Made by a program: the position numbers and the translations under genes. The notes under the pieces are model-generated. The model searched no databases, was not told the origin of the DNA, and saw nothing but the letters and a program-made list of their open reading frames with translations. This document shows positions 3,391 through 9,777 of a DNA stretch of 64,000 nt, piece after piece (position 1 is the first letter of the stretch; every line of letters begins with the position of its first letter). Origin of the DNA: a virus (taxonomy: Duplodnaviria; Caudoviricetes). The DNA lies in IMG/VR virus record IMGVR_UViG_3300042010_000129, positions 224,001-288,000 of that record; one strand, given 5' to 3'.

Positions 3391-3749
3391 TATTCTGTCT
3401 CGACAAAGAAACTCAGGTAGGTGTCATAATCAGGAACTTCGAACGATTCCAAACCGGTTTCGTTTTCATCCGGAAAGAATTCTGCACCCTGTTTAAATTG
3501 CACGCCTTCCCACACGCAGGTCAGCGAACCGTCTTGCATGAGGTGACGGAGGGTTGCAGACGGTTCCGGATCGTTGAGGCCCATCACGATTTCGAAGCGC
3601 TTGTTTTTGTAATCGTGTGTGCCACAAAAGATGTGACAGATCGGGCGCTCGTTATTGATTTGCACGGGCACCGGCAGTTGCATCACGGCGCCGACTGCGT
3701 TGTACAGACGCTCACTTTCGGCGCGGGAAATCTTACTCATTTTTGCCAC
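3390..3749 (-). CDS. hypothetical protein (119 aa)
   Basis: Coupled ORF. Confidence 0.7.
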   Translation of the reverse strand: MAKMSKISRAESERLYNAVGAVMQLPVPVQINNERPICHIFCGTHDYKNKRFEIVMGLNDPEPSATLRHLMQDGSLTCVWEGVQFKQGAEFFPDENETGLESFEVPDYDTYLSFFVETE

Positions 3750-4188
3750 CAGTTTTTGATCCGAGTTTGGGGAACGCTTGCAGAACCAGAGTGGTCAGCG
3801 TGGGTTCGATTCCTTGGTCGCGCAGTTGCTGGCGCGCTTCCGGAGTGTCGTAGCTTTTGTTCACGTTTTCCCACAACCGTTCATGACCGAAGCGCTTTTG
3901 AAAATGATCGCAGCCTTCTTGATAGTAGGCGTCGAATTCCGCAAGTTTTTCAGTGTCGTTTTGATCGAGGGCGGAACCGAACAATACCCAACGCAAACCA
4001 GACAGGCGCGGCGAGTATGCCATTTCCATCATCTGGTCAGCTATTGCCTTGCCCAGTGCATGCCACTGATCATCGGGTTTATCCGCCAGTTCACGAATCA
4101 GTTCACGGTCGTGGCTGTTTTGTTTTCCATCAGCGGCTTTCATCAAACGTTTTACTTGTTCCAACAATTCTTTCTTGTCGTCGCTCAT
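3733..4188 (-). CDS. hypothetical protein (151 aa)
   Basis: Coupled ORF with RBS-like GTGAG. Confidence 0.75.
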   Translation of the reverse strand: MSDDKKELLEQVKRLMKAADGKQNSHDRELIRELADKPDDQWHALGKAIADQMMEMAYSPRLSGLRWVLFGSALDQNDTEKLAEFDAYYQEGCDHFQKRFGHERLWENVNKSYDTPEARQQLRDQGIEPTLTTLVLQAFPKLGSKTGGKNE

Positions 4189-4195
4189 GGTTTTC

Positions 4196-4648
4196 TCACG
4201 CGGCTAAAACGTCGGTGAAATACTTCGAATCGTTCGCAGCTTTTTGCGCATCAGCTTTGTCGATACCCTTAGCAATTGCGTAGGCGCGGACGGCGCAGAA
4301 CATCGACCACTTTTGCCACGCCGGAACACCCAACACGCCCATGGCTTCGAGGAAGATCAGGTCGCCAGTTTTGCGCGTGACGTAAACGTTGATACCGTTC
4401 ATATTTACAGTTCTGTAGCTGCAAATATAATCGTGAATAACCGCTGCCTTTCCGTACTTGCCATTCGGCGGCAACAGCCAGCGAATCCACCACGGCACCG
4501 ATGCCAAATCAGTGCGATAACCGACTGGCACACTCACAACGATTCCAGATCCAAGCATGCCGATCAGGTAGGCGAAAACCTGCCAGATAACATAATGAAT
4601 TCCGTCGTCTTCAAATTCCGCTACAAGCGGGGAAGTAAAACTACTCAT
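4196..4648 (-). CDS. DUF1353 family protein
   Basis: VPxGYxTDLASVP...AAVIHDY...DLIFLEAM...M..AVR signature. Confidence 0.85.
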   Translation of the reverse strand: MSSFTSPLVAEFEDDGIHYVIWQVFAYLIGMLGSGIVVSVPVGYRTDLASVPWWIRWLLPPNGKYGKAAVIHDYICSYRTVNMNGINVYVTRKTGDLIFLEAMGVLGVPAWQKWSMFCAVRAYAIAKGIDKADAQKAANDSKYFTDVLAA

Positions 4649-6090: not shown

Positions 6091-6103
6091 ATCTGCCCCA
6101 ATG

Positions 6104-6136
6104 AAAAAGCCCCTGAATCCAAAAGGAAACAGGGGC
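6104..6136 (-). terminator. rho-independent terminator
   Basis: GCCCCTG...CAGGGGC stem followed by TTTTT. Confidence 0.75.
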
Positions 6137-6141
6137 CATGG

Positions 6142-6954
6142 TCAAACGTACACCAAAGTTTTTGCAACGAAGTTTTCGAACTTATGCAGCAGTGCGAAAG
6201 TCGCCCAATTGGTCGTGGTGTATACCGCATCACTGGTCAGCATCGCGCCATCGGCCAAGTCAACGGCTTCTGCATCGAGCATCACAATGTTGAATTCCCA
6301 TCCGTTTTTAAACACGGCGAAAATCGGAGCATCTGCAAACGTCGCAGAAACCACAACGCACTTATTCGTCTGGTCGTACCAGCACCCGCTGACCGCAAGG
6401 CCTTCGAGTTCGGAACTGCCTTCAGAAATCAGTGCTTCCACCGGCCCACGGAAAGTTTCCAGCTGATCGCCGTTGTGCAAAACAACACGGAAATCTGTTG
6501 AAGAATTCGTCAGCCAAACATTCCCTTCGCCCACCGTTACAGTGTGCCATTCTGGCCCAATCAAGATCGTTCCCTGATCAGTACCGAACGCAGGGCCACC
6601 GATATTTCTGGCGCAAATAAAATTGCCAGTAAACTCATGAACAAGCGTCCAGTCTTCATCGAGTGCGTAAATCCCCACGCCATCAACACAAGCGTAAAAC
6701 TTGTCTGCGAAAACAACGTGAGAAAACACTAAATCAACATCCATTGGTGTCCATTCGATTTTATCAACCGATTCGAACACACCGGAACCCACTGCAATGT
6801 AACGACCGTTTCCGGAAGCAACAGAAACAATGGACGCCGCAACGGACGCAGGTACGAAACCAGTAGACTGAACGAATAAACCGTTTCCATCATGGTCTGT
6901 ACCTGAACCACCGACAACATACGAACGTCGCGGAACAGGTTTTACGACTTTTTT
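6142..6954 (-). CDS. -1 frame extension of the 307-aa protein; beta-propeller-like domain (track ORF 6142..6792 is its 3' part)
   Basis: The frame is open from the slippery site to 6142 with no ATG/GTG/TTG until 6792. The upstream 52 codons read as protein (YVVGGSGTDHDGNGLFVQSTG...GNGRYIAVG). Repeated aromatic/Trp-ending beta-strand units. Confidence 0.7.
   Translation of the reverse strand, partial: KKVVKPVPRRSYVVGGSGTDHDGNGLFVQSTGFVPASVAASIVSVASGNGRYIAVGSGVFESVDKIEWTPMDVDLVFSHVVFADKFYACVDGVGIYALDEDWTLVHEFTGNFICARNIGGPAFGTDQGTILIGPEWHTVTVGEGNVWLTNSSTDFRVVLHNGDQLETFRGPVEALISEGSSELEGLAVSGCWYDQTNKCVVVSATFADAPIFAVFKNGWEFNIVMLDAEAVDLADGAMLTSDAVYTTTNWATFALLHKFENFVAKTLVYV
6901..6954 (-). promoter_or_regulatory. 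programmed -1 ribosomal frameshift signal
   Basis: In-frame A_AAA_AAG (6948-6954), 7-nt spacer, then stem-loop ACCUG...CAGGU (6901-6940) with inner CCG/UGG and CGAC/GUCG pairs. Confidence 0.75.
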
Positions 6955-7865
6955 GCGATTGTCGCCAACACTTCAACCGAAACAGCATCGCCGGTTTGCA
7001 GACGTGGACGCGCTTCCAGTTTCAGAGTGTAGAGGCCCAGCGGCACACCGTCTTCGGTACGTTCAACCGATGCCGGAAGCATGTGGTCGATGTACGGGAA
7101 AGTGTATTGCTGAATCATTTGGGTTACGCGATGGTCAGCATCGGTTGCCGAGTCGCTAACAACGCGAATACCTTGACTGTACCACGTGTAATTTTTGCCT
7201 TTGCCGTCTGGCGTTGGCGTGTTCTGCAAATCCCATTTGACGGGTGCAGCATCGCCGTCCGGATCTACGTCGAGGTAAAGGGAAATGTCGTACATTTCCG
7301 TAATGTCGTTTACGCCTGTCAGCAGCGAACCAGCCGTAACGGCAAAAGTCCAACGCTCGCCCGGTTCCAGTTCGATTTCAAAACCACCAGCGCCATCACC
7401 GAAGTATTCGCTGTTGTTGTATTTACGCACGGCCAAACCGAGTTCGATATTCGCGTTTTTACCAATCACGAAATCATCAGCCGGATTGCCTACGCCTGCC
7501 AGCATGTAATTGACGCCGCCAACTTCACGAACAAAAGTGGTTTCTGCTTTCGGCGTTTCGGTCAGTGGAGCATAAACGATTGCAGCCAGCGGGCCAGTTG
7601 CCGACCACGGGCCGAGGCAGATAAGAACATCACCGAAATAAAACGAAATGATCTTGCCGTCATTGCCTGCTTCGATTTGCGTCAGCACCGGAACTTCGGA
7701 AGAGCCGTAATGGGACGCAACGGTTTTGCGAAATGCGCCCGATTGTACAACCTCTTCCATTTCAGCTTCGGTCAGTTGAATGCGGCGGATCTTCGAGGGA
7801 TCGCCTTTGTCCTGCAAGGCTTCAATAATCTCGGCCCATACGCCCGAGTAGTTCTGGACATTCAT
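6942..7865 (-). CDS. probable virion structural protein (307 aa; short form of the frameshift pair)
   Basis: AAGGA RBS, beta-rich composition, preceded by the GTAATTTAA motif found before structural genes. Confidence 0.8.
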   Translation of the reverse strand: MNVQNYSGVWAEIIEALQDKGDPSKIRRIQLTEAEMEEVVQSGAFRKTVASHYGSSEVPVLTQIEAGNDGKIISFYFGDVLICLGPWSATGPLAAIVYAPLTETPKAETTFVREVGGVNYMLAGVGNPADDFVIGKNANIELGLAVRKYNNSEYFGDGAGGFEIELEPGERWTFAVTAGSLLTGVNDITEMYDISLYLDVDPDGDAAPVKWDLQNTPTPDGKGKNYTWYSQGIRVVSDSATDADHRVTQMIQQYTFPYIDHMLPASVERTEDGVPLGLYTLKLEARPRLQTGDAVSVEVLATIAKKS

Positions 7866-7924
7866 TAAAGAATTCCTTTATTGGTGGAAAACATGTGCAA
7901 AACATCTGCACGGAATACCTACCA

Positions 7925-9033: not shown

Positions 9034-9777
9034 TCACAGCATTTTCGGAGAGACTGGAACCGACGCCTGATTCATGTATTTTCCTTTGCGATCCGCATAG
9101 GAAATTTCACACTCTTCGTCGGAGCCGAGGAACAGAATTTGTGCGCAGCCTTCGCCCGCATAAATCTTCGCAGGCAACGGCGTTGTGTTGGAAAATTCCA
9201 ACGTCAACGAACCTTTCCATTCAGGTTCCAGCGGCGTGACGTTTACGATGATGCCGCAACGGGCATACGTCGATTTGCCGAGGCAGATAACCAGCGTATC
9301 GCGGTCGATGTTGAATTGCTCAGGCGTGTTTGCCAGCGCGAAAGAATTCGGCGGAATGATGATCGCATCGCCGTCATCTACATGCTTGGATACGAAGTTC
9401 GCGTCGGTGAAGTTTTTCGGATCGACGACAGTGTTGTTGATGTTGGTGAAAATCTTGAATTCGTTACCGCAACGAATGTCGTAGCCGTAGGAACTCAGGC
9501 CGTAAGGAATGATGCTGCGAACCGAACGTTCACCGTCACCGTCGCCAATGGCCTTGTATTCGACAGACGAAATTTGTTTGTCAGAAAAAGGCGAAATCAT
9601 CGGAGTGTGTTCGATGAAACGTTTGCTGATCACACGCGAGCCGGTAGGAGGCAGGGCCAGCAAGTCGAAGGCACGGTGCGAACCAACCCACGCATAGAAT
9701 CCACCGTTAACCATATACGCTTCACGCGTCGGCTGGCACATCCGCTTGATCCAGCGATCCGACTTAATTCCCGACAT
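9034..9777 (-). CDS. dcd: dCTP deaminase
   Basis: [48 protein letters not shown] and YADRKGKY match proteobacterial Dcd; extra ~40-aa N-proximal insertion. Confidence 0.95.

Follow-up and report, generated by a model that had tools for sequence, protein, structure and literature searches.

Programmed -1 ribosomal frameshifting on the heptamer A_AAA_AAG is known from the dnaX gene of E. coli and from insertion sequences of the IS3 family such as IS911, and in E. coli this heptamer ranks with the -1 motifs of highest efficiency (PMC4066793). In phages, structural proteins extended by frameshifting have been reviewed, and among their relatives the extension is attached by frameshift in some cases and in frame in others (PMC5009743). 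The present analysis concerns a locus on the minus strand of a stretch of 64,000 nucleotides (nt) of phage DNA (positions 224,001 to 288,000 of the IMG/VR virus record IMGVR_UViG_3300042010_000129, Caudoviricetes; hereafter the window), at which an open reading frame (ORF) for a protein of 307 amino acids (aa) ends next to an A_AAA_AAG heptamer, and a second ORF of 268 codons continues in the -1 frame. Very likely, this arrangement is a conserved programmed -1 ribosomal frameshift, by which a single gene would yield a short form of 307 aa and a long form of 574 aa. This reading is favoured because of the anatomy and conservation of the signal, the codon signature of an RNA element, the folds predicted for both halves, and a natural in-frame fusion in a relative.

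The locus resembles dnaX and IS3/IS911 in the heptamer itself, in the presumed slippage of tRNA-Lys, in a stem-loop located a few nt downstream, and in a 0-frame stop codon close to the slip site. The genes, however, are unrelated: a putative phage surface protein here, a clamp-loader component or a transposase there. Furthermore, the shifted product of dnaX is the shorter one, whereas the shifted product of the phage gene would be longer by 268 residues.

A second group of comparable systems comprises 10A/10B of phage T7, the coat protein of T3, and proteins of Lactobacillus phage A2 and of the Listeria phages A118, A500 and PSA, in which a short major form is accompanied by a C-terminally extended minor form. 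Immunoglobulin (Ig)-like domain extensions in phage structural proteins were reportedly described by Fraser et al. In contrast to these T7-type extensions, which add an Ig-like domain of about 90 residues to a major capsid or tail-tube protein, the module added here is a predicted propeller of 268 residues, the carrier resembles a capsid decoration or surface protein, and the genome is that of a jumbo phage, about 300 kb in size. The tail assembly chaperone G/GT of phage lambda differs in position, in the proteins concerned and in the slippery motif. The locus does not lie between the genes for tail tube and tape measure, but adjoins a gene for dCTP deaminase and small genes of unknown function, in agreement with an initial annotation of the window which had placed the site far from the usual tail-chaperone position.

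Putative slip site, hairpin and conservation of the signal

Direct reading of the minus strand confirms that the 307-aa ORF ends ATC GCA AAA AAG TCG TAA, with the heptamer in frame one codon before the stop (Table 1). The remaining anatomy described in the initial annotation was found to be correct as well. A 40-nt stem-loop with the helices ACCUG/CAGGU, CCG/UGG and CGAC/GUCG begins 7 nt downstream of the heptamer. The -1 frame is shut by a TGA located 8 codons ahead of the slip point and thereafter stays open for 268 codons, its earliest ATG, GTG or TTG being the GTG at 6792, i.e. codon 53, which leaves the first 52 codons devoid of a start. The heptamer alone is not unusual in the window (18 copies observed versus about 27 expected), but the copy at 6948-6954 is the only one at which a long 0-frame ORF ends at most one codon later and a long -1 frame lies open. 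No paralog of either half was found in the window.

Table 1. Features of the two-frame gene and its surroundings (window coordinates)
Feature	Position	Strand	Remarks
0-frame ORF, 307-aa short form	6942..7865	-	ATG at 7865; stop TAA 6944-6942; supported by AlphaFold2 (AF2) model, Ig-like matches, homologs of 306-309 aa
Slippery heptamer A_AAA_AAG	6948..6954	-	X_XXY_YYZ phase with the upstream ORF
7-nt spacer	6941..6947	-	carries the 0-frame TAA
Predicted stimulatory hairpin	6901..6940	-	40 nt; -16.1 kcal/mol; RNAalifold consensus
-1 frame ORF, predicted beta-propeller extension	6142..6948	-	268 codons + TGA; stop TGA 6144-6142
Shine-Dalgarno-like AAAGGAA	7873..7879	-	7 nt upstream of the ATG at 7865; read directly
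Intrinsic-terminator-like hairpin, then U5	6103..6137	-	-23.1 kcal/mol; directly after the stop of the -1 ORF; closes the two-frame unit
Small terminator-like hairpin	7895..7911	-	upstream of the unit; parts the gene from the preceding one
dCTP deaminase gene	9034-9777		247 aa, no intein

The window belongs to a jumbo phage with about 70% nucleotide identity to the Pseudomonas phages HRDY3 (314 kb) and Lu11 (281 kb). The GenBank records of both phages list two hypothetical genes at the locus and leave 117-264 nt between them unannotated, which is the split by gene callers that had been predicted for it. In HRDY3 (L001), 264 nt at the junction (3501-3765) remain unannotated, and at 4235-4378, where the propeller ORF ends, a small antisense coding sequence is called; gap and antisense gene are probably annotation artefacts of a missed frameshift.

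The signal was compared in 13 distinct sequences, namely the window, HRDY3, Lu11, one IMG/VR contig and nine metagenomic loci, the metagenomic contigs having been located via protein searches. Identity to the window drops to about 45% in the N-terminal half and to 32-41% in the C-terminal half among these relatives. Throughout the set, A_AAA_AAG is in phase and is followed by a TAA stop, directly in Lu11 and after one codon elsewhere. Spacer length (7 nt), hairpin and an open -1 frame (267-272 codons) are likewise shared by all 13. The codon contributing the leading A of the heptamer at its wobble position is GCA, ACA, GTA or TCA (Ala, Thr, Val, Ser), so that the amino acid varies while this A is kept. 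The final G of the heptamer is a synonymous site of a lysine codon, and it is unchanged throughout.

These comparisons bear on the concern that the gene is broken, or that a homopolymer error of the assembly conceals a true A7. One extra A would indeed join the two frames, and one relative, P0036, is fused in frame. However, the A6 run together with the TAA recurs in the 13 independently assembled sequences, two of them isolate genomes, contigs of three further studies span the A6 run without an indel, and the junction of P0036 is wholly different and holds no A-run. A broken gene or an assembly error is hence regarded as extremely improbable.

Alternatively, the locus may consist of two separate genes, the downstream one being translated on its own, be it from the GTG at 6792, from some non-canonical start codon, or through re-initiation behind the TAA, with an incidental heptamer. 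Public annotations and gene callers treat the locus in this way. Yet the callers place the downstream start variously, with products of 178-252 aa, and no start codon for the downstream ORF is conserved in position among the relatives; nor do the aligned junctions of the 13 sequences display any element resembling a ribosome-binding site or any conserved start near the junction. In tblastn searches, the -1 product aligns from residue 1 to residue 268 in HRDY3 and Lu11, i.e. conservation of the protein begins at the slip site, far ahead of the GTG. Invariance of heptamer, stop and hairpin also speaks against two genes, as do the predicted fold and the natural fusion discussed below. Altogether, the two-gene explanation appears very unlikely.

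The codon usage behind the slip site is informative with regard to an RNA element. Synonymous variation was measured on 11 codon-aligned sequences, as the fraction of identical-residue pairs with different codons. Over codons 1-30 of the -1 frame, this fraction amounts to 0.07-0.16, compared to a gene mean of 0.42; every other window of the alignment yields 0.31-0.63, including 0.49 just upstream of the heptamer. Such a suppression is the mark that a functional RNA element within coding sequence would be expected to leave. At -1 codons 17-30 or so (6860-6900, minus strand), over a stretch of about 45 nt that follows the hairpin, synonymous variation is still low (0.11-0.23). RNAalifold on 140 nt returned no convincing second helix or pseudoknot that would explain the suppression up to codon 30, and the hairpin loop differs in sequence from relative to relative, which makes a pseudoknot via the loop less plausible. 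The low variation past the hairpin may be due to a further RNA element or to a strong codon constraint.

Folded alone, the hairpin reaches -16.1 kcal/mol (z = -3.8), and none of 200 shuffled sequences was as stable. RNAalifold on 12 sequences returns the same hairpin. In the outer 5-bp and the middle 3-bp helix, 104 of 104 cells are paired, and the single-side changes that occur in these helices (UA to UG, GC to GU, GU to AU or GC) retain pairing. The most distant relative, L007, has CU/AG pairs in place of the UU/UU internal loop, and its stem thereby extends to 12 bp (-26.3 kcal/mol, z = -7.4). In the alignment of homologs that the initial annotation had suggested, the heptamer is invariant; the stem displays maintained pairing, but its covariation is not significant.

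A slipping RNA polymerase would be another source of the same protein. If one A were added to the A6 run in some transcripts, the resulting mRNA (GCA AAA AAA GTC) would encode the identical 574-aa fusion, and the A-run is invariant in the 13 sequences. In bacteria and in mobile elements, two products are known to arise by transcriptional slippage (PMC5009743). On the other hand, the final G of the heptamer is invariant although a synonymous AAA would lengthen the run. The A6 run is short as well; known runs for efficient slippage by bacterial RNA polymerase comprise about nine A. Transcriptional slippage gives no role to a hairpin at the 7-nt spacing of a ribosomal stimulator, nor to the synonymous suppression. 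A contig assembled from a metagenomic run declared as cDNA has A6 as well, although minor variants would escape notice in contigs. The evidence points to the ribosome as the slipping agent, and we consider slippage by the polymerase unlikely.

Several points weigh against the proposed frameshift. With an A7 mRNA giving the same junction, the sequence alone is compatible with transcriptional slippage. The hairpin is moderately stable, and its energy in an 81-nt context is unexceptional (z = -0.45). Covariation of the hairpin is not significant on either of the two alignments used, since the majority of the pairs are invariant; on the 13-sequence set, the observed score was attained by 120 of 500 shuffles. 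Part of the conservation of the hairpin is due to the protein, as the arms encode the conserved residues KPxP...GGxG. Unlike in dnaX, a Shine-Dalgarno-like stimulator upstream of the heptamer is not seen. Finally, the support is computational, and the frameshift product is a predicted one. As covariation is not significant and the arms are coding, the synonymous-site result is the stronger argument for an RNA element.

Predicted folds, natural fusion and short-only relatives

Neither half of the gene displays a match in Pfam or PHROGs. For the -1 product, AF2 with 16 aligned sequences predicts an all-beta fold with 27 strands in 268 residues (predicted local distance difference test (pLDDT) 91.5, predicted template modelling score (pTM) 0.89). 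Foldseek searches with this model retrieve WD40, Kelch and Ycf48 proteins and 7-bladed designer propellers, with template modelling (TM) scores of 0.5-0.72 and E-values of about 1e-6 to 1e-7. Remote phmmer matches of the -1 product carry the propeller domains DUF6242, PSII_BNR/Ycf48 and HVO_0234, and the domains DUF6242, PSII_BNR and HVO_0234 are often found in cell-surface proteins. The -1 product is thus predicted to be a beta-propeller of the BNR/Ycf48-like type with roughly 7 blades; AF2 and Foldseek agree on the propeller-like domain that the initial annotation had suspected. Strands are modelled at -1 residues 10-16, 24-27, 31-33, 40-46 and 49-54, which precede or reach the first possible start at codon 53. 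A product made from the GTG at 6792 would therefore miss part of the fold, and the location of predicted propeller strands within the 52 residues ahead of this start is a further argument against two genes.

The model of the short form (pLDDT 82) comprises a small N-terminal alpha/beta region and an Ig-like beta-sandwich (approximately residues 100-307), with Ig-like structural matches at Z 5-7. A distant homolog is gp9 of the Sphingomonas phage PAU, listed in GenBank as 'capsid decoration protein (banana)' with 768 residues. The similarity is seen in sequence (tblastn E 7e-11, 31% identity over 185 residues) and in structure (Foldseek against the BFVD model of gp9: E 4.9e-15, root mean square deviation 3.5 over 221 columns). 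The PAU capsid displays an arch-shaped extra density on peripentonal hexamers (PMC5646251). Further distant homologs are EST35_0383 of Pseudomonas phage PA5oct (tblastn E 2e-7), identified as a virion protein by electrospray ionization tandem mass spectrometry (ESI-MS/MS), and 'possible surface proteins' of Yersinia phage fHe-Yen9-04. Judged from these remote homologies, the short form is likely located at the virion surface, perhaps as a capsid decoration.

Like the long form proposed here, PAU gp9 has a long extension at its C-terminus, in this case encoded in frame. The extension of gp9 differs from the propeller, because the C-terminal half of the present gene has no tblastn match beyond the Lu11/HRDY3 group. 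PA5oct, with a distant Ig-like similarity, has only the 326-aa form, a stand-alone protein without frameshift.

Exhaustive phmmer searches with the -1 product yielded P0036, a protein of 582 aa in which query residues 4-267 match positions 309-581. Identity amounts to 44% between its residues 1-305 and the short form, and to 37% between positions 309-581 and the -1 product. P0036 is encoded on a syntenic contig of 115 kb, with T4_Y16D upstream and DUF1353 downstream. The DNA at its junction is in frame, without heptamer, A-run, stop or notable hairpin. In place of the frameshift cassette, P0036 (L020:3001-4749) has a Pro/Thr/Lys-rich linker, KEPTPTPKK. As P0036 is fused, at least one relative encodes the two halves as a single polypeptide, which is difficult to reconcile with two separate genes. 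No second fused homolog was found among billions of database proteins, and P0036 used as query retrieved itself alone. In-frame fusion of all homologs, which had been considered as an argument against a frameshift, is thus not observed.

The locus L017 (L017:2501-3480; 43% identity) encodes the short form only, lacks the heptamer and ends with TGA; a hairpin of terminator type, with a T-run, and an unrelated gene come next. This relative indicates that the N-terminal part can work alone, a point in favour of two genes. The neighbourhood of L017 differs, with genes for dCMP deaminase, dUTPase_2 and NADAR.

By sequence comparison, the lineage displays three states, in that relatives have the short form alone, the putative frameshift, or an in-frame fusion. 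A matching pattern has been described for phage structural proteins with Ig-like extensions (PMC5009743). With a separate predicted fold that is in frame in P0036 and absent in L017 and PA5oct, the extension fits the T7-type pattern. A maximum-likelihood tree of the N-terminal domain with PA5oct, PAU and the Yersinia phage as outgroups is unresolved and shows long branches; the fusion may be either ancestral or derived.

The frameshift with its 307-aa and approximately 574-aa products, as originally claimed, is supported by the conservation of the signal, the synonymous suppression, the natural fusion, and the lack of a positionally conserved start. The four comparative lines backing it were treated as independent in the analysis.

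Proposed decoding, its meaning and the surroundings of the gene

Based on this dataset, we propose that one gene of Lu11/HRDY3-like jumbo phages is decoded in two ways. Most ribosomes would stay in the 0 frame and stop at the TAA, giving the Ig-like protein of 307 aa. A fraction of the ribosomes would pause at the hairpin 7 nt beyond the heptamer, with P- and A-site tRNAs on the GCA-AAA-AAG region, and would slip back by one base on A_AAA_AAG, where tRNA-Lys would re-pair from AAG to AAA. Decoding of the -1 frame for 268 codons would then result in a protein of 574 aa, consisting of residues 1-306 of the short form and the propeller. The predicted masses are about 34 kDa for the short and about 62-63 kDa for the long form. 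Both forms may be incorporated into the virion in a certain ratio, and the propeller may serve in binding.

A wider hypothesis would be that the frameshift sets a fixed minority of decoration subunits, which show a 7-bladed lectin-like propeller on the head, as a larger, non-Ig counterpart of Hoc and of Ig-like 'weak adhesin' domains, and that the lineage has moved among the three states. We put this forward tentatively, as an idea that is rather doubtful in its entirety.

The mechanism and the general strategy are already known, and the advance is incremental. No mention of the frameshift site was found in the literature, including the papers on the PaBG/Lu11 group and on PA5oct, and HRDY3 was found in no paper. 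What seems noteworthy is the large propeller in place of an Ig-like module, the decoration-like carrier in jumbo phages, and the presence of three states in one lineage. The annotation of Lu11, HRDY3 and many relatives from soil, rhizosphere and plant metagenomes would be corrected to one gene instead of two. The locus would add a deeply conserved case of A_AAA_AAG with a hairpin beyond dnaX and insertion sequences, and it would suggest that modules added to phage proteins by frameshifting are not confined to small Ig-like domains. Moreover, a beta-propeller is named as a candidate surface or binding module of the poorly understood jumbo-phage virion. If the wider hypothesis is true, the three states would provide a natural system for studying why phages set the stoichiometry of surface modules by recoding.

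With regard to the transcription unit, the Shine-Dalgarno-like and terminator-like elements around the gene are listed in Table 1; no terminator-like element was seen between the two frames, and this layout of the unit speaks in favour of the proposed frameshift. In the relative L007 (L007:1-643), the dCTP deaminase upstream of the locus is a protein of 598 aa with an intein (PF14890) inside the DCD domain. The conserved downstream neighbour of the unit, at 4196-4648 on the minus strand of the window, is a DUF1353 protein in relatives. The Lu11 counterpart, Lu11_0040, bears the label 'putative tail assembly protein', and the annotation places a putative middle/late promoter immediately behind it.

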